A stretch of DNA of 64,000 nt from Vicinamibacterales bacterium. GTDB taxonomy: Bacteria; Acidobacteriota; Vicinamibacteria; Vicinamibacterales; 2-12-FULL-66-21. The notes under the pieces are model-generated. The model had not been told where the DNA came from. It ran no database searches and was given only the letters and a program-made list of their open reading frames with translations. Location: the NCBI GenBank assembly GCA_035495555.1, contig DATJFQ010000024.1:5705-69704 (forward strand). The letters are read 5' to 3'. A program made the position numbers and the translations under genes. Every line of letters starts with the position of its first letter. Positions within the stretch are counted from its first letter, which is position 1. Shown piece by piece: positions 6,884-57,770 of the stretch.

Positions 6884-6884
6884 G

Positions 6885-14141: not shown

Positions 14142-14573
14142 TCACACCATATAGGGCACGACGCGGCGCGTGCGGCGCATGTAATCGCGATACGCCGGGT
14201 ATCGCACGACGAGCATGCGCTCCTCCAGCAACATCCTGGCGATGGCGCCGACGGTAATCAACGCGCCGCCGGCAATGCTGAACCACGAGAGGTGGTCGAT
14301 GACCGCAGCCCACGTGAAGTAGAGGACGGCCGCATAGATCGGATGCCGCAGAACGGCATACGGCCCCGACGTGACGAGGCCGCCTTCCGTCGGGTTCGCC
14401 GCCGCATGAAAGCTGCGTCGTCCGAAGGTGATGCGCGCGTACAGCATCAGGAGGACGGCTGCGACCTGCACCGCGATTGCGACGGGTTCAGTCGCGAAGA
14501 TAAACCCGCGGTAGATCAGCACAGCCAGGCCGGCGATCATGAGCGCGAAGGCAACGACGGAGCTCACACGCAT
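14142..14573 (-). CDS. Isoprenylcysteine carboxyl methyltransferase (ICMT)-family membrane methyltransferase
   Basis: Start moved to ATG 14573 (MRVSSVVAFALMIAGLAV...). C-terminal signature LVTSGPYAVLRHPIYAAVLYF...EERMLVVRYPAYRDY. Confidence 0.7.
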   Translation of the reverse strand: MRVSSVVAFALMIAGLAVLIYRGFIFATEPVAIAVQVAAVLLMLYARITFGRRSFHAAANPTEGGLVTSGPYAVLRHPIYAAVLYFTWAAVIDHLSWFSIAGGALITVGAIARMLLEERMLVVRYPAYRDYMRRTRRVVPYMV

Positions 14574-14622
14574 GTGCTGCACCTGAACGAACGTCCGCCA
14601 TTGTATCCGGGTGCAGAGTTCG

Positions 14623-17277
14623 TCAGCTCCGCAACGTGCTGACCGGGTCGACCCGAATCGCGCGACGGGTCGGCAGATAGCAGGCCGCTGCGGCCGCGAC
14701 CGCCAGCGCGGCCGCAACCGCGCCAAAGGTGAGGGGATCGACAGGGCTCACGTTGAAGAGCAACGCCCGCATCAGCCGCGTGAGGGCGAACGCCGCCATC
14801 AGCCCGGCTACGAATCCCGCGCACACCGGCCGGAACCCTTCGCGCATTACCATACTGATGATCGACGCCCCCCCGGCGCCGAGCGCCAGCCGCAATCCAA
14901 TCTCCGAGCGACGGCGGCTGACAGAGAACGCCAACGTGCCATAGATCCCGATCGCGGCGAGGACGAGCGAGGTCAGCGCAAACCCGGCAAGTAACAGCGC
15001 GCGGAATTTCGGCGCCGCGACCGCACGCGCCGCCAGTTCCTCGAGCGGCCGGACACGACTGATCGCAATGTTGCGGTCCATCGTGGCGAGCACCTGCCGC
15101 ACGATGGAAACGGTCGCGACGGGATCCCCCGCTGTCCGTACCACCATCGTCATCTCGTCGGATGCGTATTGATCCTGCGGCACGTACACGACCGGTGGAG
15201 GGGCGTCGTCGATCGCTCCGACGTGCACGTCGCCGATTATCCCGACGATTTCGCGCGGTTGAGTCTCGCGCACCCCGAGATTGACACCGATGCGCAAAGA
15301 GCGGCCGATCGGATTCTCACCCGGCCAGTACTTTCGCGCCGCCGTTTCACTGATCAGGGCGACGCCGGCCCCGCCGCGGACGTCGGACCACGCGAACGCG
15401 CGTCCTGCGTGGAGTGGAATGCGCATCGTGTCCAGATAGCCGGGGGTGATGCAGCGCACCTGCATCGATCCCTCCGCCGCGGGACCCGTGCGGTCGGGGA
15501 AAGTTACGGTGCCTCCGAAGCCCGTGGGCGTGAGCGGCGGGAGCAGGACGGCACCGGCCGCGATGACCCCCGGCTGTCCCTGGAGACGCTGCGTGTACTC
15601 GCGGAAGAATGCGGCGTCGCTGTTGAACGTGGGATACGTGCCGCCTGGCAGCTGCACGTTGAACGTCAGCACGTGAGCGGCGTCGAATCCGGGCTGCACC
15701 CGGGTCAACTGATCGAAGCTCCGCAACGCCAGTCCTGCGCCCGCCAGCAGAACGACCGCCAGGGCGACCTGGACGGCGACCATCAGCTGCCGAAGCCCTC
15801 GACGGCTCGTGGTGACGTCCGTGCCCCGGCGTCCGTCCTTCAAGTACTTGCCGAGATCCGTGCGCGAGGCGATGAGCGCGGGAACGACGCCGAAGAGAAG
15901 ACCGGTCGTCAACGACAGGACCAGCGCGAACACCAGGACAAGCGGGTTGAGGCCGAGCCCGTCGACGCGCGGCAGGTCGGCCGGTGCAATCGAGAGCAGG
16001 ACGCGGAGCGCCCAGGATCCGACCAGGAGCCCGGCGATGCCGCCGCCGAACGCGAGCACGAGACTCTCGACACAGAGTTGGCGAAAAATCTGCGCGCGCG
16101 CCGCGCCGAGCGCCGAGCGCAGGGCCATCTCACTGATCCGCGTGGTCGCGCGCGCGAGGAGGAGGTTCGACACGTTCACGCACACGATCAGGAGCAGGCA
16201 CAGGACCGCGGCGAAGAGGACGAGCAGCGGCTGCTTGACGTCGGCGACGAGCTTGTCGAGGAGCGGCGTGACCGCGACGGCATATTCCGCCACCTGACGA
16301 GGATAGAGACGGGCCAGATCCGCTTCGATTGCGGCGATGTCCGCCTGCGCAGCCTGTTGTGATACGCCGTCCCGGAGACGCCCGACCACCGACAGATAAT
16401 GTGCGCCGCGCTGCCGCGGGGACAGCAACTCCGGCGTCAGCACCAGCGGAAGCCAGATCTCCGCGTGCTCGGGAAAGTCGAACCCCGGCGGCATGATGCC
16501 GACGATTTCGTGCGGCTTGCCGTCAACGGTCACCATGCGGCCGACAGCGGACGGATCGCCGCCAAACCGCCGCTGCCACAGCCGGTACGAGATCGCCGCC
16601 ACCGCCGCCGAATGTTCGCGCATGTCGCCGGCGTTCAGCGTCCGGCCGGACGCCGCTGGTACGCCCAGGGCGGCGAATACATCTGCGTCCGCATACACCG
16701 TGTCGACGCGCTCGGGCGTGTCGCCTGCGAGCGTGACGGTCGACGGGTTGTAAGCACCGAGGGACAGGAATGAATGATTGCGCGCACGCCAGTCCTGAAG
16801 ATTGACCGCGGAGACGGCAAACGGTCTGCCGTTGTGGACCTCGTTCACGTCCATCACGCGGCCGGCGTCTGGATAGGGCAACGGGCGAAGCAGCACTTGC
16901 TGGACGACGGTGAACATCGCAGCGCTCGCGCCGATCCCGAGCGCCAGGGTCAGCAGCACGCTCACCGTGAAACCGGGCGATTTCCGCAGCAGGCGGAGCG
17001 CAAACCTCAGATCGTGCAGGAACATGGGATCAACTCCCCTTCGCGCTGACGATTGGACGAGGAACGCCGGACGGTCGATGCGCCGGCATTCGCTCGCCAG
17101 CGCCACGACGCGGACTGCGAACCAGATCTCGATGGCGACCCGGGCCGGGACCGTCGCGCGACGGCAGCGGGCGCGGCGCACGCGCGAGAGATCTGCAACC
17201 GCAGGCTCGAAGCACCGGCGCCTGGCCGCGTCCGGCACGAATCGCGCGGCGAGCGACACGACATCAGGCATGCGCAT
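14623..17277 (-). CDS. ADOP-family duplicated permease with N-terminal extension (ADOP3)
   Basis: Track ORF (to 17421) trimmed to ATG 17277 (or 17271), because upstream codons overlap PadR2. 88 aa precede the conserved DLRFALRLLRKSPGF...GIGASAAMFT. An alternative canonical start is Met at 17025 (MFLHDLRF). Ends TRRAIRVDPVSTLRS. Confidence 0.85.
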   Translation of the reverse strand: MRMPDVVSLAARFVPDAARRRCFEPAVADLSRVRRARCRRATVPARVAIEIWFAVRVVALASECRRIDRPAFLVQSSARRGVDPMFLHDLRFALRLLRKSPGFTVSVLLTLALGIGASAAMFTVVQQVLLRPLPYPDAGRVMDVNEVHNGRPFAVSAVNLQDWRARNHSFLSLGAYNPSTVTLAGDTPERVDTVYADADVFAALGVPAASGRTLNAGDMREHSAAVAAISYRLWQRRFGGDPSAVGRMVTVDGKPHEIVGIMPPGFDFPEHAEIWLPLVLTPELLSPRQRGAHYLSVVGRLRDGVSQQAAQADIAAIEADLARLYPRQVAEYAVAVTPLLDKLVADVKQPLLVLFAAVLCLLLIVCVNVSNLLLARATTRISEMALRSALGAARAQIFRQLCVESLVLAFGGGIAGLLVGSWALRVLLSIAPADLPRVDGLGLNPLVLVFALVLSLTTGLLFGVVPALIASRTDLGKYLKDGRRGTDVTTSRRGLRQLMVAVQVALAVVLLAGAGLALRSFDQLTRVQPGFDAAHVLTFNVQLPGGTYPTFNSDAAFFREYTQRLQGQPGVIAAGAVLLPPLTPTGFGGTVTFPDRTGPAAEGSMQVRCITPGYLDTMRIPLHAGRAFAWSDVRGGAGVALISETAARKYWPGENPIGRSLRIGVNLGVRETQPREIVGIIGDVHVGAIDDAPPPVVYVPQDQYASDEMTMVVRTAGDPVATVSIVRQVLATMDRNIAISRVRPLEELAARAVAAPKFRALLLAGFALTSLVLAAIGIYGTLAFSVSRRRSEIGLRLALGAGGASIISMVMREGFRPVCAGFVAGLMAAFALTRLMRALLFNVSPVDPLTFGAVAAALAVAAAAACYLPTRRAIRVDPVSTLRS

Positions 17278-17599
17278 CGCGGGTGCGGGTGTCGAATTCA
17301 GCGATGGCTTCGGTGTAGAACGCCCGGGTCGACGTCCAGGCCTGCGCGCCCGCGTCGGTGAGCGTGTAGCGGCGTTCCTTGATGATTTGGCCGTCGACGA
17401 TCTTCTGGTCGTAGGCGCCATCCACGAGTCCGGCGTCCTCGAGCCGCGCCATCATCTGATAGAACGCCGGGGCGGAGCGTGCGACCCCTCGCTTCGCGAG
17501 CGCGCGGCGCAGGTAGCGTCCCGGCCGCTCCCCCGCGCGCAGTAATCCCAGCACCAGGAACTGCAGGTGCGTAATCGCTGGAATTCGGCGGCGTGACAT
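17264..17599 (-). CDS. PadR-family transcriptional regulator (PadR2)
   Basis: 111 aa. Sequence THLQFLVLGLLRAGERPGRYL...FYQMMARLEDAGLVDG...RRYTLTDAG has the PadR winged-HTH layout. Its stop overlaps the ADOP3 start by 8-14 nt. Confidence 0.8.
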   Translation of the reverse strand: MSRRRIPAITHLQFLVLGLLRAGERPGRYLRRALAKRGVARSAPAFYQMMARLEDAGLVDGAYDQKIVDGQIIKERRYTLTDAGAQAWTSTRAFYTEAIAEFDTRTRDAHA

Positions 17600-17614
17600 A
17601 ACGCCGCATTATAT
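17597..17614. promoter_or_regulatory. AT-rich imperfect inverted repeat over the PadR2 start (minus-strand reading ATATAAT-N5-GTTATG)
   Basis: Read directly. The half-sites resemble those at PadR1 (ATATAAC ... GTTATATG), and the right half again contains the start codon. Confidence 0.35.
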
Positions 17615-17694
17615 CAATTCACGAGCGCGGACGGCCCATCTTCCGGCGGATCTGGAAATCCGGCGGGAGAACGGAAATCGTCAATGGGAGCTGA

Positions 17695-20367
17695 TCAGGA
17701 CCGGACCAGCGTCCCTGGTTGGATGCGCGCGGCGCGCGCCGCGGGGACGAATGCCGCAAAGAGGGTGACGAACGCCAGCGCCAGAGCGGCGGCGGCCAGC
17801 GACAGCGGATCAGCAGGCGTGACGCCGAAGAGCAGCGCGCCCATCGGACGCGTGGCGATCGGCGTGACCGCCAGCCCGGCTGCGATCCCCGCGCCAGCCA
17901 GCCACGCCGCTTTCCGGAGCACCAGTGCGAGCACCGACGCCTTTTCGGCGCCCAACGCCATCCGGATCGCGATCTCGCGCTGCTGCTGGGCGACCGACCA
18001 TCCCATCAATCCGTAAATGCCGATCACGGCCAGCGTCAGCGCGAGCACGCTGAACCCCGTGACGAGGGCGGACACGAATCGCGGCCGAGCGACGGCATGC
18101 GCGATGTGGTCGTCCATCGTCTTCACGTCGGCGATCGCGAGCGTGGGGTCGAGCTCCGCCACGGCATGCCGGATCGACGGCACCATCTGGTAGGGGTCCC
18201 CCGCCGTCCTGACGACGAATGCCATGAACGGGAACGAGCGCTGGGACGCGGGCTGATAAATCTCGGGGCGCGGCGGAACGGCAGGGCCGAGATGGCGGAT
18301 GTCCGATGTCACGCCGACGACGGTCAACCACGGCTCTTCGGCGCTGATCCGCACGCGCTTGCCGATCGGGCTGTGTGCTGGCCATTGCTGCCGCGCAAGC
18401 GTTTCGTTGACGAGAACGACGCCCTGTGAGTTGCGGGTATCGGTGAGCGCAACGTCGCGGCCTTCGAGGATCCGGATGCCCATCGCCGAGAAGAAACCCG
18501 GCATGACGACCTGATATCCCCCGGCGGGCTCCTGTCCTGGTTCGGGAATCGGCCGGCCGTCCACCTGATAGGTCGTCCCGAAGTCATCGCCGCCAATCGG
18601 CAGGGTCACCGCCGATCCCGCCGCCGTCACGCCGGGAAGCGCGAGCAGCCGTTCCTGCAACGCCGCATAGAAGCGGACCTGTTCCGACTGATACTCGGCG
18701 GTACGACCGGTCAGATTGATCGCGAACGTCAGCAGGTTGCGCGTGTCGATCCCGGTATCGACGTGCGTCAAGGACGCGAAGCTGCGCACGAGCAGCGCGG
18801 CGCCCGCGACGAGCAGCACGGCAATCGCAATCTGGCAGGCGACCAGCCAATCCCGGACGCGGCTGCTGCGCCGCGATCCCGAGGCGCGCGTCGAGCCCTC
18901 GGCCAGCGCCGAGGTCAGGTCGCCCCGTGAGCACTGGAGCGCCGGCGCGATGCCGAACGCAACGCCCGCAAACACGGCGACGGCGGCGGCATAGATGAGC
19001 ACACGCCAGTCGAGCGTCACGCTCAGCGCGGTCACGTCGTCCGGCGCAACGCGCAGCAGCATGCGCACGGACCACCACGCGAAGATGGCGCCGGCGGCCG
19101 CGCCGGCCACGGAGAGGACGAGCGCCTCGGTCAGCAGCTGCCGCGCGATGCGCAGGCGTGTCGCGCCGAGCGCCCGCCGGAGCGCGAGATCCCGCCGTCG
19201 AGCCGCGCCCCGCGCCAGCAGCAGGCTCGCGACGTTCGCGCACGCAATCGCCAGCACGAAGACGACCGCCATCGCAAGCACGATGAGCGGACGTTCGAGT
19301 GTTCCGAAGAACTGCGTGCGCGCATCCACGAGCATGGCGGTTCGGCCGCCGTCCTGCGGGTACTGCACCGACAGGCGTGCGCCGATCGCGCGCACTTCCG
19401 CGTCCGCCTGCCTCTCGGTCACCCCCGGACGCAATCGCGCGACGACCCGGATATAGCCGGCATTGCGGTTGTCGCGGACGTCCCTGTCTTCGTCAATGGC
19501 GACGCGAGGTACGTCTCCGGGGCCCCCTGGCACGAAGAGGTCCGGCCCCGCACCGGCCGTCGGTGTGCCGGTGATGAACGGCCAGAAGAACTCGCGCGGC
19601 ATCACCGCGACGACCGTACGCGCCCGGCGATTCAGCGTGATCGCACGCCCGACAATTGACGGGTCGCCGCCGAAGCGCCGGACCCACAGTCCGTAGGTCA
19701 GGACGACGGCGTTGGGATCCGCGTGACCGCCATGAAAAGTGTCGCCGATCAGCGGACGGACCCCGAGCACATCGAAGAATGTCGACGAGACACTGGCGCC
19801 GGGGAGCGTTTCGGGATCGCCGCGGCCCGTCAAGGTATAGGAGATGTGGCTCAGCGCCGCGAACCCGGAAAAGCTCGTGGACTGCGCGCGGAAATCCATC
19901 ATGCGCCCTGGGCCGAACGGAGTCGGCCGTCCATCGGTGTTGCGGTTCCACAGGAACACCAGCTCGCCCGGATCCGTGAACGACAGCGGCCGCAGTAGCG
20001 CGGCGTTCACAACGCTGAAAATCGCCGTGTTTGCGCCGATACCGATCGCAAGGGTCAGCAGAGCGACGGCCGTGAAGCCCGGCGTCCGCCAGAGCCCGCG
20101 CAGCGCATAGTTGACGTCCTGACGCAAATCTCGCCACATGCTTTGCCGCCCCCGCTCCCGCATGACTTGCTCGTCGATCGTCCGGACCTCGCGCCGGATC
20201 CGCTCGAGGTCGCCGAAGCGCCGCTCCGCCTCGCGGCGCGCCGCGTCGGTGTCGAGCCCCTGCGCGCGCGCGTCGCGGGCCCGCATCTCGAGGTGAAACG
20301 TCAGCTCGTCGTCCACGTCGCGCCCGACGTCGCGCCACGGCCTGCGGTCTTGCCGACCGTCGCTCAT
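17695..20367 (-). CDS. ADOP-family duplicated permease with N-terminal prefix domain (ADOP4)
   Basis: 890 aa. An 83-aa prefix (..DVDDELTFHLEMRARDARAQGLDTDAARREAERRFGDLERIRREV..) precedes DVNYALRGLWRTPGF...GIGANTAIFS. Ends ARAARIQPGTLVRS. Its ATG overlaps the PadR3 stop (ATGA). Confidence 0.9.
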   Translation of the reverse strand: MSDGRQDRRPWRDVGRDVDDELTFHLEMRARDARAQGLDTDAARREAERRFGDLERIRREVRTIDEQVMRERGRQSMWRDLRQDVNYALRGLWRTPGFTAVALLTLAIGIGANTAIFSVVNAALLRPLSFTDPGELVFLWNRNTDGRPTPFGPGRMMDFRAQSTSFSGFAALSHISYTLTGRGDPETLPGASVSSTFFDVLGVRPLIGDTFHGGHADPNAVVLTYGLWVRRFGGDPSIVGRAITLNRRARTVVAVMPREFFWPFITGTPTAGAGPDLFVPGGPGDVPRVAIDEDRDVRDNRNAGYIRVVARLRPGVTERQADAEVRAIGARLSVQYPQDGGRTAMLVDARTQFFGTLERPLIVLAMAVVFVLAIACANVASLLLARGAARRRDLALRRALGATRLRIARQLLTEALVLSVAGAAAGAIFAWWSVRMLLRVAPDDVTALSVTLDWRVLIYAAAVAVFAGVAFGIAPALQCSRGDLTSALAEGSTRASGSRRSSRVRDWLVACQIAIAVLLVAGAALLVRSFASLTHVDTGIDTRNLLTFAINLTGRTAEYQSEQVRFYAALQERLLALPGVTAAGSAVTLPIGGDDFGTTYQVDGRPIPEPGQEPAGGYQVVMPGFFSAMGIRILEGRDVALTDTRNSQGVVLVNETLARQQWPAHSPIGKRVRISAEEPWLTVVGVTSDIRHLGPAVPPRPEIYQPASQRSFPFMAFVVRTAGDPYQMVPSIRHAVAELDPTLAIADVKTMDDHIAHAVARPRFVSALVTGFSVLALTLAVIGIYGLMGWSVAQQQREIAIRMALGAEKASVLALVLRKAAWLAGAGIAAGLAVTPIATRPMGALLFGVTPADPLSLAAAALALAFVTLFAAFVPAARAARIQPGTLVRS

Positions 20368-20714
20368 GTCGTCCGCGTCTTGCGCGCGTCGAACGCGCGG
20401 GTCACGGCCGCCGAAAAGCGGCCCCAGCGTGACAACTCGGCGCGCAGTTGAGCGCGGCCGTCTTCGGTGAGCGTGTACGAGCGGACGCGCCGGTTCGTGT
20501 CCGATTTCGTCCAGTGCGACGTAATCAGGCGTCGCGCCTCGAGGCGATGCAGCGCCGGATACAGGGACCCTTCCTCCACCAGCAGTTCGTCGCCGGTCGC
20601 CTGTTCAATCCAGCGCGCGATGCCGTAGCCGTGCAGCGGTCCCCAGCTGAGCGCTTTCAGGATGAGTGCGGTCAGCGTGCCCTGCAGGAGATCGACGCTC
20701 GTCCGGTCGCTCAT
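20364..20714 (-). CDS. PadR-family transcriptional regulator, acidobacterial type (PadR3)
   Basis: 116 aa. Sequence LLQGTLTALILKALSWGPLHGYGIARWIEQ...EEGSLYPALHRLEARRLITSHW...NRRVRSYTLTEDGR resembles the TIGR03433-type PadR that accompanies ADOPs (from memory). Confidence 0.9.
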   Translation of the reverse strand: MSDRTSVDLLQGTLTALILKALSWGPLHGYGIARWIEQATGDELLVEEGSLYPALHRLEARRLITSHWTKSDTNRRVRSYTLTEDGRAQLRAELSRWGRFSAAVTRAFDARKTRTT

Positions 20715-20721
20715 AGGCCTG

Positions 20722-20741
20722 CCATCATATACCTATGATGG
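20722..20741. promoter_or_regulatory. Perfect 8-4-8 palindrome CCATCATA-TACC-TATGATGG in the divergent PadR3/ADOP5 intergenic region (candidate operator)
   Basis: Read directly. It lies 8 nt upstream of the PadR3 start (20714) and 47 nt upstream of the ADOP5 start (20788). Confidence 0.55.
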
Positions 20742-20787
20742 TATGTGTCAAGTGCCTTCCGGCCCGTCTCGTCGTAGACTTTTCCGC

Positions 20788-23280
20788 ATGAGGACACTCG
20801 GACGCGAGCTCAGATTCGCCGTGCGCGCGCTGCGCAAGCAGCCGGCGTTCTCGGCCATCGTCGTGCTGACGCTCGGCCTCGGTATCGGCGCGAATACCGC
20901 CATCTTTTCGCTCCTCGATCAGGTGCTCCTGCGCCGCCTTCCCGTGCAGGACCCGCAGCAGCTCGTCCTCCTCGACGGCCCCGGCCCGTTCCAGGGCCGC
21001 ACGATGAACGCGCAGACCTTCTCGTACCCGATGTATCGCGACTTCCGCGATCGGACCAAAGTGTTCTCCGGCGTCCTCGGCCGCATGGCCACACCGGTGA
21101 CGCTCACGTTCAACGGCCAGGCCGAACGGGTGAACGCCGAGCTCGTCACCGGCAACTTCTTCGACGTGCTCGGCGTCCGGCCGGCGCTCGGCCGCGTGCT
21201 CAACGCGTCGGACGACGGCGCGCCTGGCGCGAATCCCGTGGTCGTCCTGAGCTACGGATACTGGACGCGCCGGTTTGGCGGGGACCCCACGGTTCTCGAC
21301 CAGACGCTGTCGATCAACGGCCACCCGATGACCATCGTTGGCGTCTCGGCTCGCGGGTTCGAAGGCGTCCAGGTCGGCTCGCCCCCCGATGTAATGGTGC
21401 CGGTGTCGATGAAAGCGCAGATGACGCCGACGTGGGACGACCTCTCGGATCGCCGAAGCCGATGGCTCACCGTGATGGCGAGGCTGGCGCCCGGCGTGAC
21501 GCGCGAGCGCGCAGCGGCGCAGATGAACGTCGTCTACCGCCAGATTCTGGAGGAGGAAGTCGCCACGCTGCCGAAGACGACCTCCCAGTCCTTCCGGCAA
21601 CGATTCGTCGCCAAGCACCTCGACGTGCTGCCCGGCGCGCGCGGGCTGTCGGATCTGCGAAGCGAGTTCAATACGCCGCTCATCGTGCTCATGTGCATGG
21701 TCGGGGTCGTCCTGCTCATCGCCTGCGCGAACATCGCCAACCTGCTGCTCGCGCGCGCCGCATCCCGGCAGCGCGAGGTCTCCATTCGTCTGGCGCTCGG
21801 CGCCGGACGGCGCCGCATCGTGATGCAGCAACTGTCGGAAAGCCTCGTGCTGGCGCTGACTGGGGCCGGCGCGGGATTGCTGTTTGCGACGTGGACCGGA
21901 TCGGCCCTGCTGGCCGCGCTGCCTGGTGACGGCGCCTCCCGCGGGCTGCATGCAGGCCCGGATGCGCGCGTCGTCCTCTTCGCGTTCGCCCTCGCCGTGA
22001 TCACGGCGCTCGTGTTCAGCGTCATGCCGTCCCTGCACGCGACACGGACACCTGTCAGCGGCGCGTTGAAAGAGGAGGCGGGGAACGTGGCGGGCGGCAG
22101 CCGGCAAGCGCGCGTGCGCGGCGCCCTCGTCGTCGCGCAGGTCGCGCTTTCGATGGTGCTGCTCTCGGGCGCGGCGCTGTTTGCGCGGAGCCTGTTCAAT
22201 CTGAAATCCGTCGATCCGGGGTTCACGATCGACCACCTCGTCACCTTTTCGATCGACCCGTCGCTGAGCGGATACGACACTCCGCGCAGCCGTACGCTCT
22301 TTCAGCGGTTGCAGGCGGAGCTGGCGTCGCTCCCAGGCGTGCGTTCGGTGTCGATGGCAGAACTCGGCCCGCTGACCGGCAACAACTGGAGCATGACCGT
22401 CAAGGTCGATGGATACGCAGCCAAGGAGAACGAAGACCTCAACCCGAACGTCGACGGCATCGGCGCCGGGTACTTCTCCACGATGGGCGTCCCGCTCGTC
22501 GCTGGCCGGGAATTCACCGCCGCGGACGATGCCGGCTCGCCGCACGTGGCGGTCGTCAACGAAACCATGGCGCACTACTTCTTCGGCAGCTCGAACCCGA
22601 TCGGCCGCCGCATCTGGTTTGGCCGCGATCGCAACATCGACATCCAGATCGTGGGCGTCGTAAAGGACACACGGTCGCTGAGCCTGAAGAACGACGCTGT
22701 GCGGTTCGTCTACATCCCGTACACTCAGGATCCGAATCTCGGTCCGCTGACTTTCTACGTGCGCGCGGCCGCTGGTCCCGCGACTCCCGCGGCAGCGGTG
22801 CGCGACGCCGTGCATCGCATCGATCCGTCGCTGCCGATGTACGACATGAAGACGATGACGGCGCAGGTCGACGATTCGCTGTTCGTCGATCGAATGGTGG
22901 CAGCGTTGTCCGTCGCGTTCGGCGCCCTGGCGACGCTGCTCGCGGCGCTCGGGCTTTACGGTGTGATCTCTTACGCGGTCGCGCGGCGGACGCGTGAGAT
23001 TGGCATCCGCATGGCGCTTGGCGCCGAGCGGACCCGCGTCCTATGGCTGGTGCTGCGCGAGGCCGCAGTCCTGGCGGGCATCGGCATCGTCGCGGGGCTT
23101 GGTGCCGCGATGCTGCTGGTCCGCTACGTTCAGGCGCAGCTTTACGGCCTTTCGGCCACGGACCCGCGGACGCTCGTCGCGGCTGCCGCCGTTCTGGGGG
23201 TCATCGCACTCCTGGCCGGCTACGTCCCCGCGCGGCGCGCGACGGCGATCGATCCGATGCTGGCGCTCAGGACGGAGTGA
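20788..23280 (+). CDS. ADOP-family duplicated permease (ADOP5, no prefix, divergent from PadR3)
   Basis: Start moved from 20662 to ATG 20788 (MRTLGRELRFAVRALRKQPAF...GIGANTAIFS). The upstream codons of the track ORF overlap PadR3. Ends ARRATAIDPMLALRTE. Confidence 0.9.
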   Translation: MRTLGRELRFAVRALRKQPAFSAIVVLTLGLGIGANTAIFSLLDQVLLRRLPVQDPQQLVLLDGPGPFQGRTMNAQTFSYPMYRDFRDRTKVFSGVLGRMATPVTLTFNGQAERVNAELVTGNFFDVLGVRPALGRVLNASDDGAPGANPVVVLSYGYWTRRFGGDPTVLDQTLSINGHPMTIVGVSARGFEGVQVGSPPDVMVPVSMKAQMTPTWDDLSDRRSRWLTVMARLAPGVTRERAAAQMNVVYRQILEEEVATLPKTTSQSFRQRFVAKHLDVLPGARGLSDLRSEFNTPLIVLMCMVGVVLLIACANIANLLLARAASRQREVSIRLALGAGRRRIVMQQLSESLVLALTGAGAGLLFATWTGSALLAALPGDGASRGLHAGPDARVVLFAFALAVITALVFSVMPSLHATRTPVSGALKEEAGNVAGGSRQARVRGALVVAQVALSMVLLSGAALFARSLFNLKSVDPGFTIDHLVTFSIDPSLSGYDTPRSRTLFQRLQAELASLPGVRSVSMAELGPLTGNNWSMTVKVDGYAAKENEDLNPNVDGIGAGYFSTMGVPLVAGREFTAADDAGSPHVAVVNETMAHYFFGSSNPIGRRIWFGRDRNIDIQIVGVVKDTRSLSLKNDAVRFVYIPYTQDPNLGPLTFYVRAAAGPATPAAAVRDAVHRIDPSLPMYDMKTMTAQVDDSLFVDRMVAALSVAFGALATLLAALGLYGVISYAVARRTREIGIRMALGAERTRVLWLVLREAAVLAGIGIVAGLGAAMLLVRYVQAQLYGLSATDPRTLVAAAAVLGVIALLAGYVPARRATAIDPMLALRTE

Positions 23281-23300
23281 CCGACCCGCCGGCGAATAGA

Positions 23301-26000
23301 ATGAGGAACATGCCTCATCGCACAGGCCTGATCCTCTTTCTTCTTCTCCTCACCGCGCCACTCGGCGCCCAGCGTCCTGCGAAGCCGGCGGCAAAATCGC
23401 CCGCCCCCGATGCCGCGCCACAGGTGGGCGTCAGCATCACGGAGCCGATGCTGAAGGGCGTCGCGGCCCGCGCCATCGGACCGGCAATCATGGGCGGTCG
23501 CATATCAGACATCGCGTACGACCCGTCTGATCCCTGGACGTTCTATGTGGCCACGGCGCACGGCGGCCTCATGAAAACGACGGACAACGGCGGTTCGTTC
23601 ACGGCGCTCACCGAAAAGGACGCGATCGTGTCGACCGGTGCCGTGGCCGTCGCGCCGTCGAACCCGAAGATCGTCTGGTTGGGAACGGGCGAGGCGAACG
23701 ATCGGAACAGCGCCGGCTTTGGAAACGGCGTCTACCGATCCACCGACGGCGGCTCGACGTGGACGCACGCGGGGCTCGACAAGTCTCGAACGGTCGCCCG
23801 CATCGCGGTCCATCCCACAAACCCGGATATCGCCTATGCGGCAGTGCCAGGCGACCTCTGGACGCCAACTCCCGATCGCGGTCTCTATAAGACGACGGAC
23901 GGAGGCAAGACATGGAAGGCCGTCCTGCAGGCGGAGGACCAGAAAGACAAGGTCGGCGCCGGCGACGTCATCGTGGATCCGTCGAATCCGGAAATCGTTT
24001 TCGCCGCGCTGTACGCGCGGCGGCGGACGCCGTGGTCGTTCGCCGCGGGGCCGGAAGCCAGCAACGGCAAGGATCTCGGGGGCATATTCCGCAGCACTGA
24101 CGGCGGCGCTACGTGGAAGAAGCTCTCGAACGGCTTGCCGCCAGCGGCGGGACGCATCGGTCTGACGGTCTATCCCAGAAATCCGAAGATCGTCTACGCC
24201 GTCGTGCAGAGTTTTGCCGGTGGCACGTCGAACATCGACGACGTAACCAGCAAGAGCGGCGGCGTGTTCCGCAGCGACGACGGCGGGGACACGTGGGTCC
24301 GGCGCAGCAACCTCGACCCGCGGCCGTTCTACTTCAGCCAGATTCGCGTCGACCCCCAGGACGATCAGAAGGTCTACGTGCTCGGCTTCATGCTCCACGT
24401 GTCCGAAGATGGGGGGAAGACCTGGCGTGAAGACCGGTTCAAGAACGTCCACTCCGACTGCCACGCGCTCGCCATCGATCCGCGCACGCCCGGACGGCTG
24501 CTCCTGGGCACCGATGGCGGCGTGTATCAGTCTTACGATCGCGGCGCGCAGTGGGCGCACGTGAACACGGTCGCCATCGGCGAGTTCTACCGGATCGCCG
24601 TCGACGACAGCACGCCGTATCGGATCTGCGGCGGCCTGCAGGACAACGCGAACTGGGTCGGCCCGAGCGCCACGCGCACGAAGGACGGCATCGTCAACGA
24701 CGACTGGACGAACATCGAAGGCGGCGATGGCATCTACTGCTTCTTCGACGCAACCGACCACAACGTTGTCTACGCGGAGTCGCAGTCGGGCACCGCGTAT
24801 CGCCTGAACCTGGAGAGCGGCGCGACGAAGGAGTTCATGCCGCAGCCTGCCGAAGGTCAGGCGGCGTTCCGCTTCCACTGGAGCTCGCCGTTCATCCGCA
24901 GCGTGCACGATCCGAAGCGCTTTTATCTTGCCGGCAACCGCGTGTTCATGTTCAGGGAACGCGGCGACGAATGGCAGGCGATCAGCCCCGACCTGTCGAC
25001 GAACAATCCCGAGCGCACCACGGCGACCGGCAGCGGTGCCGAAACGTACGGCGTCGTGTTCACGCTGGCGGAGTCGCCGCTGAAAGACGGAATGCTATGG
25101 GCCGGAACCGACGACGGCAAGTTGTGGGTGACGGAGGACAACGGCGCGCACTGGAGCGATCTCACGTCAACGCTTCCAGGCGACGCGAAAGGACAATGGA
25201 TCGCGCGGGTCGAGGCCGGGCATGCCGATGCGAACGTCGCATATCTGGTCGTCAGCAGCTATCAATCCGGCAATTATGCGCCGCTGGTGTACCGCACCGG
25301 GGACAAGGGACGCACGTGGCAGAGCATCGCCGCGAATCTCTCGAAGGACTGGCCGGCACGCGTCGTCCGCGAGGATCCGTCGAACCCGAGTCTCCTCTTT
25401 GCCGGGACCGAGACGGGACTGTTCGTCAGCTTCGATCGCGGCGGGTCGTGGCAGCCGCTCGGGGCTCTGCCGACGGTGCCCGTCGACGACATCCTCGTCA
25501 ATCCGCGCACGCACGATCTCGTCATCGCGACGCACGGGCGCAGCCTGTACATCATCGACAACATCTCGGCGTTGGAGCAGTTGACGGCCGAGAACGCGGC
25601 GACGCCTGCGCACCTGTTTCCGATCGCGCCCGCCGTCGCCTTCGAGCCGTTGCCGGGGTGGGTCGATTCGAATGGTTCGACGGGCATTTACCGCGGCGCA
25701 AACCCGCCGGTGGCGGCGTCCATCGACGTCTACGTCCACGCGTTCACAGGCGATTCGATCTCGATCGCTGTCAAAGGGCCTGACGGGAAGCCCGTCGCCA
25801 ATCTGTCCGCGCCCGGGACACCGGGTTTCAACCGCATCACGTGGGACCTGTACCCGTCGTCGGAACTTCTGACCGCGTATGGTGGCGAGGGGCGGAAGTT
25901 CGTCAAGCCTGGTGAGTACGAGGTGACGATGACGTACGGCGAGACGACCGAGACACAGAAGGTGACCGTCTCCGCGCTGCCAGATATCGAGACGCGATAA
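23301..26000 (+). CDS. Secreted BNR/Asp-box repeat beta-propeller protein (sortilin/VPS10- or GH74-like)
   Basis: Start moved to ATG 23301 (MRNMPHRTGLILFLLLLTAPLGAQ signal peptide). Repeated S/T-x-D-x-G-x-T/S-W boxes: STDGGSTWTH, TTDGGKTWKA, STDGGATWKK, SDDGGDTWVR, SEDGGKTWRE, TEDNGAHWSD, TGDKGRTWQS, SFDRGGSWQP. Confidence 0.8.
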   Translation: MRNMPHRTGLILFLLLLTAPLGAQRPAKPAAKSPAPDAAPQVGVSITEPMLKGVAARAIGPAIMGGRISDIAYDPSDPWTFYVATAHGGLMKTTDNGGSFTALTEKDAIVSTGAVAVAPSNPKIVWLGTGEANDRNSAGFGNGVYRSTDGGSTWTHAGLDKSRTVARIAVHPTNPDIAYAAVPGDLWTPTPDRGLYKTTDGGKTWKAVLQAEDQKDKVGAGDVIVDPSNPEIVFAALYARRRTPWSFAAGPEASNGKDLGGIFRSTDGGATWKKLSNGLPPAAGRIGLTVYPRNPKIVYAVVQSFAGGTSNIDDVTSKSGGVFRSDDGGDTWVRRSNLDPRPFYFSQIRVDPQDDQKVYVLGFMLHVSEDGGKTWREDRFKNVHSDCHALAIDPRTPGRLLLGTDGGVYQSYDRGAQWAHVNTVAIGEFYRIAVDDSTPYRICGGLQDNANWVGPSATRTKDGIVNDDWTNIEGGDGIYCFFDATDHNVVYAESQSGTAYRLNLESGATKEFMPQPAEGQAAFRFHWSSPFIRSVHDPKRFYLAGNRVFMFRERGDEWQAISPDLSTNNPERTTATGSGAETYGVVFTLAESPLKDGMLWAGTDDGKLWVTEDNGAHWSDLTSTLPGDAKGQWIARVEAGHADANVAYLVVSSYQSGNYAPLVYRTGDKGRTWQSIAANLSKDWPARVVREDPSNPSLLFAGTETGLFVSFDRGGSWQPLGALPTVPVDDILVNPRTHDLVIATHGRSLYIIDNISALEQLTAENAATPAHLFPIAPAVAFEPLPGWVDSNGSTGIYRGANPPVAASIDVYVHAFTGDSISIAVKGPDGKPVANLSAPGTPGFNRITWDLYPSSELLTAYGGEGRKFVKPGEYEVTMTYGETTETQKVTVSALPDIETR

Positions 26001-26288: not shown

Positions 26289-27668
26289 ATGCGTCGCTTG
26301 CTGTTTACGGGCGCGGTGTGCGCGGTGCTGCTGTGCCCCGCCAGTCGATCGGTCCTGGCGGAGGGGCCCGGCTACACCATCACCAATCTGGGGACGTTTT
26401 CAGGAGTCGTCCCGTTCATCACCGGCATCAACGCCAGCGGTGCCGTCTCGGGATGGGTCCATACCGGCCTCGGCGATCGCGCGCTGCGCTATACCGATTC
26501 GGGCGGCTGGGCGCTCATCCCGGGCCTCGAATCAATCACGAGTTACGCATTCGGCATCAACGATCACGGCGACGTGGTCGGGACCGCTCTGCTTGCAAAC
26601 GGCGACATACGGGCGTTCCGCTACACCGATGGCGGCAGCGTTGAATTCGTCGCGCCGTTGGACGGCGGCAGGTCTACCCAGGGTTATGGGATCAGCAACA
26701 CCGGCGAGATGACCGGTTACGGCGACAAGTCGAATTTCACAACAGTTGCGTTCCGCCAGATGCCAGGCCTGCTCGCGCAGCCGATCGACGCATTCGGCAG
26801 CTCCTACTCAGCCGGGTGCGGCATCAACGACAGCGGCCAGGTCGCCGGGAGCTTCATGACGCCCGACAATCTGCTGCACGGATTCCGCGCGAACGTCGAT
26901 GGTACGGTCGCGGAGATTTCGGGATTGAACGGGCCTGAGAGCCAGAACTTCCCATGCGCGATCGACGGCGACGGTAATGTCACGGGGCAGGCCGAAACGG
27001 CCACTGGCGCCCTCCACGCCTTCCTGTTCAGCAGCGTCAATCCGCTGGACCTGGACTCGTTCGGATCCACCGGCAGCGCCGGCATTGCGATCTCGAACGG
27101 CGTGGTGGTCGGCACCTACACGCTCCCGGACAACGTGTCGACGCATGCGTTCAGGTACGATCGGACGACCGGCACGGTCGATCTGAATACACTGCTGCCT
27201 TCCGCGAGCGGCTGGGTGCTGACCGACGGCGGGGCGGTGAACGCCAAGGGCGTGATGGCCGGGCAAGGAACGCTGAATGGAGCGTCAGCCGCGTGGAAAT
27301 TGTCACCGCCTTCGGATACGACGCCCCCCACGATCGCTGCGCTGTCGGTGTCGCCGTCAGCGTTGAAGCCGGATCACAAGATGACGCCGGTCGTCGTCTC
27401 CGTCTCCGCGACAGACGACGTGGACCCGCATCCGTCCTGTTCCATTACCGCGATCGACGCGACCGACGGGGATCCGGGCGACGCCGCCATCACGGGTCCG
27501 CTCACCGCGTCTGTGCTGTCGGCGAAGGATGCCCGCGGGAACACCCGCGTCTACACGCTCACGGTGACGTGCAGCGACGCGTCACGGAATGCGTCGACGG
27601 GAACGGTAACGGTGCAGGTGGCGGGCAACGGTGCGTCGAAGGCCCTGACCAGGATCAAGGGAGACTGA
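26289..27668 (+). CDS. Secreted HAF-family extracellular repeat protein with C-terminal Ig-like domain
   Basis: Start moved to ATG 26289 (MRRLLFTGAVCAVLLCPASRSVLA signal peptide). Recurrent ...G.N..G.V.G......HAF/RAF motifs (IRAFRYTD, LHGFRAN, GALHAFLF, STHAFRYD), as in the HAF extracellular repeat family (TIGR03803, from memory). Confidence 0.75.
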   Translation: MRRLLFTGAVCAVLLCPASRSVLAEGPGYTITNLGTFSGVVPFITGINASGAVSGWVHTGLGDRALRYTDSGGWALIPGLESITSYAFGINDHGDVVGTALLANGDIRAFRYTDGGSVEFVAPLDGGRSTQGYGISNTGEMTGYGDKSNFTTVAFRQMPGLLAQPIDAFGSSYSAGCGINDSGQVAGSFMTPDNLLHGFRANVDGTVAEISGLNGPESQNFPCAIDGDGNVTGQAETATGALHAFLFSSVNPLDLDSFGSTGSAGIAISNGVVVGTYTLPDNVSTHAFRYDRTTGTVDLNTLLPSASGWVLTDGGAVNAKGVMAGQGTLNGASAAWKLSPPSDTTPPTIAALSVSPSALKPDHKMTPVVVSVSATDDVDPHPSCSITAIDATDGDPGDAAITGPLTASVLSAKDARGNTRVYTLTVTCSDASRNASTGTVTVQVAGNGASKALTRIKGD

Positions 27669-27689
27669 CCGGGCGCGGCGAGAACGCCT

Positions 27690-29648
27690 TCAGGAACGCT
27701 CCCGCGGCTCTTCGAGGTACGTGTACCCGTGCAGGCCGTCTTCGTAGAACTCGAGGAGACGGCCTGACTCTTCGAACGTCATGCGGCCCTCTCGAACGGC
27801 CAGCTCCACGTCCTGGCGCAACTTGCGCACCAGCGTCTCGGCATCGAACTCCACGTAGTCGAGCACCTCGCGGACCGTGTCCCCTTTGATGACCGCGTCG
27901 AGGACGACGCTCCCCGCGTCGTCCAGGCTGACGTGAACGGCGTGCGTATCGCCGAACAGGTTGTGGAGATCCCCCAGAATTTCCTGGTAAGCGCCGACGA
28001 GGAACACGCCGAGGTAGTACGGCTCGCCGTTGACGGTGTGCAGCGGCAGCGTCCGCTTGACGTCGCGGCGATCGATGAACGAGTCGATCTTCCCGTCCGA
28101 GTCGCAGGTGATGTCGCCGAGCACCGCATGATGGCTGGGCGGCTGATTCAGGAAGTGAATCGGCATCACCGGGAACAGCTGCTTGATCGCCCAGCTGTCG
28201 GGAATCGACTGGAACAGCGAAAAATTGCAGAAATACGTGTCGGCCATCGCGTCGTCGAGGCCCTGCAGGTCCTCGGGGACGTCTTCCATCTGCGCGACGA
28301 TCTTCTTGAGCTTGGCGAGAATCGCCCAATAGAGGTTCTCGGCCTGGCAGCGCTGGTCGAGCGGCAGATACCCGCCCGTAAACAGATTCAGCGCCATGTC
28401 GAGCGCCTGCTGGGCGTCGTGGTAGCTCTCGAGCGCGTTGCGGACCGACAGGTGTTGATACGTCTCGAGGAGGTCGATGACGGGCTGCTCCGCCTCGTCC
28501 GGCGAAATCGAATCGGGGATCTTTTCCTCGCCGAACGCCGACACCCCCAGCACGTTGAAGATGAGAACGCTGTGGTAGGCGACGATGGCGCGCCCGCTCT
28601 CGGACACGATCGTCGGGTGCTTCACGCCCGCATCGTCGCAGACGGTCTGAATGTGGTAGACGACGTCGTTCGCGTATTCCTCGAGGGTGTAATTCACGCT
28701 CGACTCGAAGTTGGTCTGGGAGCCGTCGTAATCGACGCCGAGGCCGCCACCGACGTCGAGGTACTCGAGACCGGCGCCGGCTTTGACCAGTTCCGCGTAG
28801 ATCCGCGCGGCTTCGTTCAACGCGCCCTTGACGATGCGGATGTTCGGGATCTGGCTGCCGAGATGAAAGTGCAGGAGCTTGAAGCAGTCCTGCATGTCGC
28901 GCGCCTTCAGCTCGGTCAGGCCGCGCAGCACTTCGGCAACCGTGAGGCCGAATTTGGAGCGGTAGCCGCCTGACCCCTGCCAGCGCCCACCGCCGCGCGA
29001 CGCCAGCTTGACGCGCATGCCGATCTGCGGCCTGACGCCGACCTTCTCCGCATACTTCAGGATGAGGCCCAGCTCCGTGTACTTCTCGACGACGGGGATG
29101 ATGTTGCGCCCGATCTTCTGGGCGAGCATCGCCGCTTCGATGTACTCGGCGTCTTTGAAGCCGTTGCAGATGATGGGCGTGTCGTTGGTCGCCTGCGCCA
29201 TCACGGCCAGCAGTTCGGGTTTCGAACCGGCCTCGAGGCCGAAGCCGTATTCCCGGCCGAAGTCGTGGACCTCTTCGACGACCTGCCGCTGCTGGTTCAC
29301 CTTGATTGGATAGACGCAGATGTAGCGCCCGTCGTAGTTGTGCTGATTGATCGCGGTCTGAAAGGCGTTGTGGATGTCGCCGATGCGATGGCGCAGGATA
29401 TCGGTGAAGCGAATCAGCACCGGGAGCCCGATGCCGCGGAGCATCAAGTGGTCCGTGAGCTGCTTCAGATCGATGCTGCGCGACGGATCCTTCGTCGGGT
29501 GGACGAGGACGTGGCCGTCTCTCGAAATCGAGAAGTACCCTTTTCCCCACCGATCGACTTCGTACAGTTCAGTCGCGTCGCTGACGGTGAAGATCTCTCC
29601 CGCCTGCCACGTGCGGTTCCTCGTTGTGGGGGTGCTCACTCGGTTCAT
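27690..29648 (-). CDS. speA: Biosynthetic arginine decarboxylase
   Basis: ATG 29648 preferred over GTG 29657. Full-length SpeA-like sequence: YEVDRWGKGYFSI, VYPIKVNQQRQVVEEV, HFHLGSQI, EYLDVGGGLGVDYDGS, LGDITCDSDGKI. Confidence 0.92.
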   Translation of the reverse strand: MNRVSTPTTRNRTWQAGEIFTVSDATELYEVDRWGKGYFSISRDGHVLVHPTKDPSRSIDLKQLTDHLMLRGIGLPVLIRFTDILRHRIGDIHNAFQTAINQHNYDGRYICVYPIKVNQQRQVVEEVHDFGREYGFGLEAGSKPELLAVMAQATNDTPIICNGFKDAEYIEAAMLAQKIGRNIIPVVEKYTELGLILKYAEKVGVRPQIGMRVKLASRGGGRWQGSGGYRSKFGLTVAEVLRGLTELKARDMQDCFKLLHFHLGSQIPNIRIVKGALNEAARIYAELVKAGAGLEYLDVGGGLGVDYDGSQTNFESSVNYTLEEYANDVVYHIQTVCDDAGVKHPTIVSESGRAIVAYHSVLIFNVLGVSAFGEEKIPDSISPDEAEQPVIDLLETYQHLSVRNALESYHDAQQALDMALNLFTGGYLPLDQRCQAENLYWAILAKLKKIVAQMEDVPEDLQGLDDAMADTYFCNFSLFQSIPDSWAIKQLFPVMPIHFLNQPPSHHAVLGDITCDSDGKIDSFIDRRDVKRTLPLHTVNGEPYYLGVFLVGAYQEILGDLHNLFGDTHAVHVSLDDAGSVVLDAVIKGDTVREVLDYVEFDAETLVRKLRQDVELAVREGRMTFEESGRLLEFYEDGLHGYTYLEEPRERS

Positions 29649-57765: not shown

Positions 57766-57770
57766 ACATA

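Follow-up and report, generated by a model that had tools for sequence, protein, structure and literature searches.

The 64-kb window analysed here, i.e., the whole 64,000-nucleotide stretch of DNA to which positions refer unless stated otherwise, raises the question of whether a prefix-bearing permease, its PadR regulator and a second, divergent permease work together as one functional unit, with both permeases controlled by that PadR, as proposed in a preliminary description of this DNA, and whether such permeases can operate as a system without an ATPase. The gene order given in that description stands after the coordinates were re-read. The interval 14623-23280 holds ADOP3 and PadR2, a 95-nt gap (17600-17694), ADOP4 and PadR3, a 73-nt gap (20715-20787) and the divergent ADOP5. 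The similar locus reported at 54773-60370 is also present (PadR4-ADOP6 facing ADOP7), and the further pair at 6527-9467 and the lone permease gene at 1968-4403 were recovered as PadR1-ADOP2 and ADOP1, respectively (Table 1).

Table 1. Permease genes, PadR genes and candidate regulatory sites of the window.
Feature	Position	Strand	Description
ADOP1	1968-4403	-	Lone, prefix-less; TIGR03434 976.1 bits
Palindrome at PadR1 start	6508-6528		ATATAAC-N7-GTTATAT; overlaps PadR1 start
PadR1	6527-6883	+	PF03551 58.8 bits; not of TIGR03433 type; followed by ADOP2
ADOP2	6885-9467	+	Uncatalogued prefix; TIGR03434
ADOP3	14623-17277	-	Duplicated FtsX/MacB-type permease; TIGR03434 909.7 bits; N-terminal extension of ~84 aa
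PadR2	17264-17599	-	Small PadR repressor; PF03551 29.0 bits; predicted translational coupling to ADOP3
Candidate PadR2 operator and -10 region	17598-17612	-	Imperfect palindrome ATAATGC-G-GCGTTAT over PadR2 start codon
ADOP4	17695-20367	-	TIGR03434 886.5 bits; permease-prefix-1 domain at residues 9-62
PadR3	20364-20714	-	Acidobacterial-type; TIGR03433 124.4 bits; PF03551 75.0 bits; ATGA overlap with ADOP4
Candidate PadR3 operator	20722-20741		Perfect palindrome CCATCATA-N4-TATGATGG; inside PadR3-ADOP4 promoter
Predicted sigma-70-type promoter, PadR3-ADOP4 operon	20724-20751	-	TTGACA, 16 nt, TATGAT; 11/12 consensus matches
ADOP5	20788-23280	+	Prefix-less; TIGR03434 968 bits; divergent from PadR3, 73 nt
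ADOP6	54773-57418	-	Prefix-bearing; TIGR03434 886.6 bits; second locus
PadR4	57415-57765	-	Acidobacterial-type; TIGR03433 146.2 bits; PF03551 70.6 bits; ATGA overlap with ADOP6
Candidate PadR4 operator	57773-57791		CCTGTTG-N5-CAAAAGG
Candidate PadR4 operator	57806-57824		CCTGTTG-N5-CAAAAGG
ADOP7	57902-60370	+	Prefix-less; TIGR03434 859.7 bits; divergent from PadR4, 136 nt

By profile search, seven frames of the window were assigned to TIGR03434, the ADOP family, with scores of 806.7-976.1 bits against a curated cut-off of 622.3 bits that was exceeded in none of 14 control genomes. Each frame carried two PF02687 (FtsX) matches indicative of an internal duplication (for ADOP5, at 27398-27757 and 28619-28960 of contig C24). 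When ADOP4, the one ADOP used for structure search, was compared with solved chains, MacB (5lil, 5gko and 5nik) was nearest. All four PadR genes of the window passed the Pfam PadR model PF03551 (cut-off 27 bits), and PadR3 and PadR4 additionally passed TIGR03433 (cut-off 101.8 bits), a model for which PadR1 scored below cut-off (47.5 bits) and PadR2 gave no match. At each of the four junctions the PadR and ADOP genes overlap or abut. The start of ADOP3 was placed at position 17277, at an ATG overlapping the stop of PadR2, while the automatic list of open reading frames runs on to 17421. Pfam scans of the other large frames revealed housekeeping genes only. The ADOP copies stand interleaved with these conserved housekeeping genes.

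PMC3914696 quotes the name ADOP ('acidobacterial duplicated orphan permease') together with the family's first description, which was from acidobacterial genomes. The family has already been catalogued, along with the PadR that partners it, the N-terminal prefix and the orphan status, and the window agrees with the catalogue in its lineage (Acidobacteriota; here an uncultured soil member of the Vicinamibacterales), in a 67-copy expansion within the genome, in the usual lack of an adjacent ATPase gene, and in that PadR3, PadR4 and ADOP4 pass the corresponding models TIGR03433 and NF038403. By contrast, the curated partner models recognize neither PadR1 and PadR2 nor the prefixes of ADOP2 and ADOP3. 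Compared to MacAB-TolC, the ADOPs share an FtsX-type module of four transmembrane segments and a periplasmic domain homologous to MacB, but differ in being fused double permeases that have no fused NBD and no gene for an NBD, adaptor or TolC in the window. Dense ADOP paralogs on one stretch of DNA are also known from a 42-kb cluster of Psychroflexus torquis, in which about ten paralogs encode abundantly expressed proteins (PMC3914696). Unlike that cluster, which lies on a genomic island in a member of the Bacteroidota, the window copies are found among conserved housekeeping genes.

We favor, at a probability of roughly 0.68, a reading in which the window is a local accumulation of old ADOPs that are regulated independently of one another, with separate PadR-ADOP operons, signalling between prefix and PadR, and NBDs supplied in trans. 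Each ADOP would be one polypeptide in which two MacB/FtsX-type transmembrane modules are fused as a dimer and which has two periplasmic domains, and PadR1-ADOP2, PadR2-ADOP3, PadR3-ADOP4 and PadR4-ADOP6 would form four separate two-gene operons. In each operon a small PadR dimer would act at a private palindromic operator to repress the promoter from which PadR itself is expressed, the PadR gene would be translationally coupled to that of the permease, and the helical cytoplasmic prefix of the permease would most likely talk to PadR. By one-step membrane signalling of the HAAS-PadR type, permease activity or envelope stress may then free PadR and so lead to more permease. The permeases would not be ATPase-free but would most likely borrow MacB/LolD-type nucleotide-binding subunits (NBDs) whose genes lie at other loci of the genome. 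ADOP5 and ADOP7 would be ordinary prefix-less paralogs with evolutionary histories of their own, set head-to-head with PadR modules by local rearrangement and inherited synteny.

The density of the window is unusual for the genome, in which 67 ADOPs of ~2.5 kb each occupy ~4% of 4.43 Mb. About one ADOP would be expected per window and seven were found (Poisson P ~7e-5). Recent tandem duplication was considered as the origin of the cluster and rejected, as the window ADOPs are at most ~41-46% identical to any paralog.

The link between prefix and regulator was evident from the N-terminal ends of the permeases. In the window, all four PadR-led ADOPs are extended at the N-terminus by 69-84 residues, compared to 3-5 in the three remaining copies (in ADOP5, the TIGR03434 core begins at residue 5 from the ATG at 20788), and the proposed tie of the prefix to PadR coupling is borne out at this level. 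Genome-wide, the prefix-1 domain was detected on 14 ADOPs, each of which (14/14) is preceded by a PadR of the TIGR03433 type, and at least 28 of the 32 PadR genes adjoin an FtsX-type permease. The prefix of ADOP4 scored 44.4-48.7 bits with NF038403 (cut-off 30), and that of ADOP6 was borderline and below cut-off (22.8-28.2 bits), while no NCBIfam match at E<=10 was found for the prefixes of ADOP2 and ADOP3, the search with ADOP3 covering its first 90 aa. No Pfam match at E<=10, the DUF1700-type families included, was found for any of the four. In the alignment of the prefixes G42 and G57 are invariant and a GxP motif is not conserved. An AlphaFold2 model from a 10-sequence alignment predicted helices at residues 3-13, 20-40, 45-56 and 59-68, at a pLDDT of only 60 and a pTM of 0.35. 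The strict co-occurrence of prefix and PadR would be hard to explain otherwise, and we thus infer that the two interact, probably by direct contact.

Classical drug sensing offers another explanation, in which PadR would bind a small ligand directly and derepress an efflux permease, the prefix being irrelevant to signalling. The solved chains nearest to PadR3 are labelled as PadR-like family, i.e., small regulators such as 3f8b, which we take to be LmrR. In Lactococcus, LmrR has drugs as its direct ligands and regulates an ABC exporter. This explanation is considered unlikely, since it leaves the restriction of the prefix to permeases with an upstream PadR without a role, and since a published comparative analysis (PMC11237479) likewise argues for prefix-PadR interaction. 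In that study (Ravi et al. 2024, mSystems), which already put forward the idea of prefix-PadR signalling, HAAS-PadR dyads fused to FtsX/MacB-PCD permeases were described, with an example from Acidobacterium capsulatum. The window modules resemble these dyads in that a standalone PadR gene lies beside a gene for a multi-TM protein with a short helical N-terminal cytoplasmic domain. HAAS domains are recognized as three-helix domains with a kinked third helix, a conserved GxP and similarity to DUF1700, DUF1129 or DUF1048; by contrast, the window prefixes have neither a DUF1700-type Pfam match nor a conserved GxP in their alignment. By analogy to the dyads of Ravi et al. 2024 (PMC11237479), the prefixes may belong to the HAAS superfamily.

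Under the favored reading of independent PadR-ADOP operons, each PadR would have an operator of its own; candidates were found at PadR2, PadR3 and PadR4, and a palindrome overlaps the start of PadR1 (Table 1). The site from 20724 to 20751 was the only promoter-like site within 14400-23500. The PadR3 palindrome within it is the sole copy in the 4.43-Mb genome, even when three mismatches are allowed. Likewise, the PadR4 motif was found genome-wide at only its two sites with up to one mismatch. In related genomes, all 10 loci compared have it beside the PadR4 orthologue and at no other position in the locus. The same ATAATGCGGCGTTATGTCAC as at PadR2 recurs upstream of the orthologue in the relative G006, and PadR2 would bind at this palindrome. 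PadR2 orthologues with 70-74% identity adjoin ADOP genes in G006 and G013. Among the 18 TIGR03433-type PadR genes of the genome, most were judged by eye to have a palindrome or repeat, differing from gene to gene, downstream of a TTGACA-like hexamer. The sites of Table 1 are candidate binding sites of their adjacent PadR proteins.

The PadR3 operator bears directly on the proposal of a conserved unit, in which one PadR would govern a prefix-bearing operon permease and a divergent prefix-less permease from the same operator, e.g., as sensor and worker. Only 46 nt separate the end of the candidate operator from the start codon of ADOP5, and a search of the 73-nt gap gave ADOP5 no sigma-70 promoter of its own. 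PadR3 could therefore repress ADOP5 as well, and such co-repression is physically possible in this genome. The divergent layout furthermore occurs twice in the window and a third time in the genome, at C8, and the closest paralog of ADOP5 (C8_8354, 99% support) is the divergent partner of the PadR-prefix-ADOP module at C8. The modules faced by these two sister paralogs are not themselves supported sisters, either for the permeases (ADOP4 and C8_5176) or for the regulators (PadR3 and the C8 PadR). Moreover, only 3 of the 25 PadR-led ADOPs of the genome have a divergent ADOP neighbor, with one additional variant in which PadR is found on both neighbors.

Comparison to relatives was also at odds with such a unit. 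ADOP5 orthologues (58-68% identity) were detected in 5 of 40 relatives and were divergent from PadR in none of the five. In G006 the orthologue is upstream of, and co-directional with, the PadR3-ADOP4 orthologues; in G023 and G013 it is upstream of the ADOP4 orthologue with no PadR3 detected; and in two relatives it is solitary. ADOP5 and ADOP4 orthologues are thus still neighbors in 3 of the 5. Orthologues of ADOP7 (49-85% identity) were more common (24 of 40 relatives) and were mostly solitary, including in 11 of 28 close loci and nearly all of ~50 more distant loci. A divergent PadR4-ADOP6 module, intact or frameshifted, was found 5' of the ADOP7 orthologue in 10 of the 28 close loci. The direct conservation of the PadR4-ADOP6|ADOP7 layout in 7 related loci speaks for the unit. 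Against this, an AstE/AspA-like gene intervenes between the PadR4 and ADOP7 orthologues in three loci, and the operator stays with PadR4 while its distance to the ADOP7 orthologues ranges from 69 to 1265 nt. The unrelated flanking housekeeping genes (EEP, HAD and GlnRS) are equally syntenic at the ADOP7 loci, and thus the adjacency of PadR4 and ADOP7 is explained by descent.

The phylogeny that the preliminary description had called for pointed in the same direction. On a tree of all 67 paralogs, prefix-bearing and prefix-less copies did not form separate clades. PadR-led status required 20 changes compared to a mean of 20.2 after shuffling, and prefix-1 required 14 changes for its 14 carriers. 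The other outcome foreseen in that description, that prefix-less copies are recent truncations, also does not hold, since the paralogs share at most 46% identity. With 3 of 25 cases genome-wide, random scatter on the tree and ADOP5 orthologues that are never divergent, the proposal of two permeases under one PadR as a functional unit was not upheld, and we regard a conserved unit of this type as decidedly improbable.

A narrower version would be that a single-gene inversion set ADOP5 against PadR3, such that one operator gates ADOP4 and ADOP5 as a lineage-specific sensor/worker pair and, more broadly, ~60 orphan ADOPs depend on three or four MacB-type ATPases. We consider this combination quite unlikely. 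If true, it would be a 'few engines, many permeases' design that would be new for type VII ABC systems.

We also searched for the ATPase, adaptor and channel genes that would be expected to accompany MacB-type permeases. No match to ABC_tran (PF00005), HlyD_3 (PF13437) or OEP (PF02321) was found on the 77.9-kb contig C24, in agreement with the local absence noted earlier. The further premise of a system without ATPase fails at the level of the genome, where nine LolD/MacB-type ATPase (NBD) genes were detected, each at >185 bits. At C75 the gene order is HlyD adaptor, NBD, ADOP, and at C97 it is ADOP, ADOP, NBD; the NBD-ADOP adjacency of the C75 type was found in at least 11 relatives. Thus, the missing ATPase is a trait of the locus and not of the system. 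Of the parts of a MacAB-TolC pump, the C75 ADOP has both an adaptor and an NBD gene beside it, and the three ADOPs with NBD neighbors (3/67) depart from the 'orphan' label of the family.

These findings bear on an alternative in which the ADOPs are truly ATPase-independent, either acting solely in PadR signalling, as transmembrane sensors or scaffolds, or drawing on another energy source. Such a role would fit the 64 of 67 ADOPs that have no adjacent NBD gene, including all seven of the window, and the small number of MacB-type NBD genes (9) compared to ADOPs (67). It is nonetheless very doubtful given the operons at C75 and C97, the former kept with its adaptor among relatives, and given the way related transporters work: to our knowledge, every characterised MacB/FtsX/LolCE member operates by mechanotransmission from an NBD dimer. 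Sharing of NBDs has precedent in MsiK of Streptomyces, which serves type-I sugar importers, and the ADOPs resemble that case in having many permease genes without an NBD of their own and few NBDs that could act in trans. We know of no such sharing shown for MacB-type permeases. The favored reading, with NBDs in trans, would have the ADOPs share ATPases in a comparable manner.

In soil Acidobacteriota, few expansions of uncharacterised membrane proteins are as large as that of the ADOPs. Nothing at the locus is new in kind, but the analysis yields handles for experiments, which would be useful for testing the published HAAS-PadR signalling idea. These are the private palindromic candidate operators of PadR3 and PadR4, evidence of repeated reshuffling of PadR/prefix cassettes and permease bodies, and two candidates for a shared engine, namely the conserved adaptor-ATPase-ADOP operon and an orphan ATPase. 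The NBD at C113 had no permease neighbor among the large adjoining frames scanned. The NBD at C77:112809 was considered as a shared ADOP ATPase and rejected as not ADOP-specific. Identity to it is 76-96% in 36 of 40 relatives and 68-69% in two more, G008 and G009 give matches of paralog level only, and it looks like a housekeeping gene because it is kept across relatives, ADOP-poor ones included. The NBD at C23:6233 lies beside gatB and is followed by an unannotated frame of ~297 aa; our guess is that this NBD and the next frame are an FtsE/FtsX pair.

Seven long ORFs of the window (C24:5705-69704 of G000, a genome of 4.43 Mb, 123 contigs and ~66% G+C whose genes have their closest public relatives in MAGs titled Vicinamibacterales or Acidobacteriota) were found to encode permeases of the acidobacterial duplicated orphan permease (ADOP) family. 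All seven carried two FtsX domains and scored 807-976 bits against TIGR03434 (cut-off 622); for ADOP4, the sole ADOP so searched, MacB gave the nearest solved chains. Four small genes encoded PadR-family regulators, with PadR3 and PadR4 passing the acidobacterial model TIGR03433 and PadR1 and PadR2 falling short of it. The layout of 14623-23280 in the preliminary description, two PadR-ADOP pairs with a divergent ADOP5, proved exact. The ADOP3 start was read from the sequence as the ATG at 17277, which overlaps the PadR2 stop, although the ORF list extended the gene to 17421. All four PadR/ADOP junctions were overlapping or abutting, and the four PadR-led ADOPs bore a prefix of 69-84 additional N-terminal residues, compared to 3-5 for ADOP1, ADOP5 and ADOP7. 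The ADOP4 prefix was permease prefix 1 (NF038403), that of ADOP6 scored slightly under the cut-off, and those of ADOP2 and ADOP3 matched no curated model.

Features of the window and of other contigs (C-numbers) of the same genome; NBD, nucleotide-binding (ATPase) subunit of ABC systems
Feature	Position	Strand	Context
ADOP3	14623-17277	-	downstream of PadR2
PadR2	17264-17599	-	95-nt gap to ADOP4
ADOP4	17695-20367	-	downstream of PadR3
PadR3	20364-20714	-	73-nt gap to ADOP5
Palindrome CCATCATA-N4-TATGATGG	20722-20741		within PadR3 sigma-70-type site
TTGACA-16-TATGAT	20751-20724	-	sigma-70-type site
ADOP5	20788-23280	+	opposite to PadR3-ADOP4
BNR/sortilin-like gene, longest ORF	23043-26000		overlaps final 238 nt of ADOP5 (23043-23280)
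A2M-PbpC pair	40166-48624	-	
CCTGTTG-N5-CAAAAGG	57773-57791, 57806-57824		ahead of PadR4
Adaptor-NBD-ADOP set (L046)	C75:5025-9749	-	
HlyD-family adaptor	C75:8421-9749	-	
MacB-type NBD	C75:7663-8316	-	
ADOP	C75:5025-7466	-	
ADOP, ADOP, MacB-type NBD, CusF/SCO1-like protein (L047)	C97:8761-15752		ADOPs in tandem
MacB-type NBD (L049)	C113:17700-18356		between spermidine-synthase-like membrane protein and BNR/sortilin protein
PadR/prefix-1 permease loci	C93:15337-17021, C104:13386-15133		non-TIGR03434 permeases

By domain scans, the remainder of the window consisted of housekeeping genes; other products included IMP dehydrogenase, lytic transglycosylase, arginine decarboxylase, a TonB-type receptor, GlnRS and EF-P. 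The window also has a classical A2M-PbpC pair, in which the gene for a 2001-aa bacterial alpha-2-macroglobulin immediately precedes one for a PBP1C-type penicillin-binding protein with domains Transgly, Transpeptidase and BiPBP_C. The true start of the BNR/sortilin-like gene is probably further downstream, as its longest ORF runs into the end of ADOP5.

The genome was found to encode 67 ADOPs, 32 PadR proteins above the Pfam cut-off and 17 prefix-1 domains. A same-strand PadR preceded 25 ADOPs, and all 14 prefix-1 ADOPs were downstream of a TIGR03433-type PadR. The proposal that one PadR, its prefix-bearing permease and a divergent prefix-less permease form a functional unit was not borne out, as a divergent ADOP was present beside only 3 of the 25 PadR-led ADOPs (twice in the window, once on C8), with one additional variant on C111. 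Nor did the paralog tree reveal paired clades: PadR-led status required 20 changes versus a shuffle mean of 20.2, and the PadR-led partners and PadRs of ADOP5 and of its sister (the C8 divergent partner, 99% support) showed no supported sister relation. Prefix-1 required 14 changes for 14 carriers, well-supported sister pairs differed in state (e.g., C55_36753 and C60_50321), and ADOP7 was far from ADOP5.

Orthologues of ADOP5 were detected in 5 of 40 relatives (58-68% identity). In G006, the ADOP5, PadR3, prefix-ADOP4, PadR2 and ADOP3 orthologues were all co-directional in this order; in G023 and G013 the ADOP5 orthologue was ahead of that of ADOP4, with no PadR3 detected; and in G007 and G028 it was apart from any PadR module. 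Thus, the head-to-head arrangement reflects an inversion of ADOP5 that, among the genomes examined, was found in G000 alone. The palindrome of the G006 PadR3 orthologue differed from that of G000 and was absent upstream of the G006 ADOP5 orthologue. Incidental co-repression of ADOP5 by PadR3 is possible in G000, as 46 nt separate the candidate operator from the ADOP5 ATG and a sigma-70 search of 14400-23500 found no separate ADOP5 promoter, the PadR3 site being the only near-consensus one.

ADOP7 orthologues were widespread (24 of 40 relatives). Among 28 assessable loci (at least 59% identity), the PadR4-prefix-ADOP6 module was directly divergent in 7, separated by an AstE/AspA-like gene in 3 and reduced to remnants in 3; the others had an unrelated divergent ADOP without PadR (5), neither PadR nor ADOP upstream (9) or a tandem degraded PadR-ADOP array (1). 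Nearly all of ~50 more distant orthologues lacked an upstream ADOP or divergent PadR. Since the flanking EEP, HAD and GlnRS genes kept their position equally well, descent accounts for the adjacency. The PadR4 operator motif was always beside the PadR4 orthologue (10 of 10 loci) and 69 to 1265 nt from that of ADOP7, a range that, with the intervening gene, speaks against ADOP7 as a shared-operator partner. In MFD-named MAGs (L053, L074, L118 and L080), ADOP6 and some ADOP7 orthologues were split by frameshifts, which may be real decay or long-read homopolymer errors and were not counted as pseudogenes.

The PadR3 palindrome is perfect and occurred once in the genome, even at 3 mismatches; the PadR4 motif had no sites besides its two copies. 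ATAAC/GTTAT-type palindromes covered the PadR1 and PadR2 start codons, and in most of the 18 TIGR03433-type PadR genes, read by eye, a TTGACA-like hexamer was followed by a differing palindrome or repeat. These motifs fit PadR-ADOP modules that would be autorepressed and mutually insulated.

Seven ADOPs per 64 kb is ~7-fold the expectation. Recent tandem amplification was rejected as the origin of the cluster because no window ADOP exceeded ~46% identity to any paralog; judged by this divergence, the copies are old. The closest paralogs of PadR4 lead C88_21008 and C47_19084, ADOPs that are not close relatives of ADOP6 on the permease tree. On C93 and C104, a TIGR03433 PadR accompanied prefix-1 fused to ~1000-aa FtsX-type permeases absent among TIGR03434 matches; thus, the cassette heads non-ADOP permeases too. 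The trees, with weakly supported deep nodes, suggest that PadR/prefix cassettes recombined onto different permease bodies.

Consistent with the preliminary description, matches to ABC ATPases, HlyD adaptors and TolC-family proteins were lacking in the window and also in the rest of the contig. This lack holds for the locus but not for the organism, which has nine LolD/MacB-type NBD genes (TIGR02211, 189-241 bits; next best 140 bits). Neighbours were analyzed for 61 well-scoring ABC NBD matches of 69 listed, and two of the nine adjoined ADOPs (C75 and C97). An NBD-ADOP adjacency of the C75 type was recovered from gene coordinates in at least 11 relatives and thus represents a conserved core system; the C75 ADOP is non-orphan, and a histidine kinase follows the set. 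The CusF/SCO1-domain neighbour hints at a copper-related role for the C97 ADOPs. The genome-wide search for orphan ATPases yielded the C113 NBD, which had no permease neighbour among the large ORFs scanned and was confined to the family of G000 (15 of 24 genomes, 69-81% identity); this NBD is a candidate for serving orphan ADOPs in trans. The C77 NBD looks housekeeping, being present at 76-96% identity in 36 of 40 relatives, including ADOP-poor ones (68-69% in two others). The simplest reading, we infer, is that orphan ADOPs would use NBDs in trans.

The ADOP family (a name quoted in PMC3914696), its PadR partner, prefix and orphan status are already catalogued (TIGR03434, TIGR03433 and NF038403). 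The prefix-PadR signalling hypothesis is likewise published: co-occurrence here matches the HAAS-PadR dyad of Ravi et al. 2024 (PMC11237479), who list FtsX/MacB-PCD fusions from Acidobacterium. Examined as putative members of the HAAS superfamily, the window prefixes gave no Pfam match and showed no conserved GxP motif; their fold model was of low confidence. Useful by-products are the candidate operators, a set of ATPases that ADOPs might share, and evidence that permease bodies have repeatedly exchanged their PadR/prefix cassettes. In several Vicinamibacterales genomes, short G+C-rich tandem repeats (GGTTCTC, CGTGGTTCGTGG and GAGGCGCGAGGCGG types) fill and lengthen intergenic spacers, including the PadR4-ADOP7 orthologue gaps of L027, L030 and L045 and the region upstream of the PadR at C8:14774.
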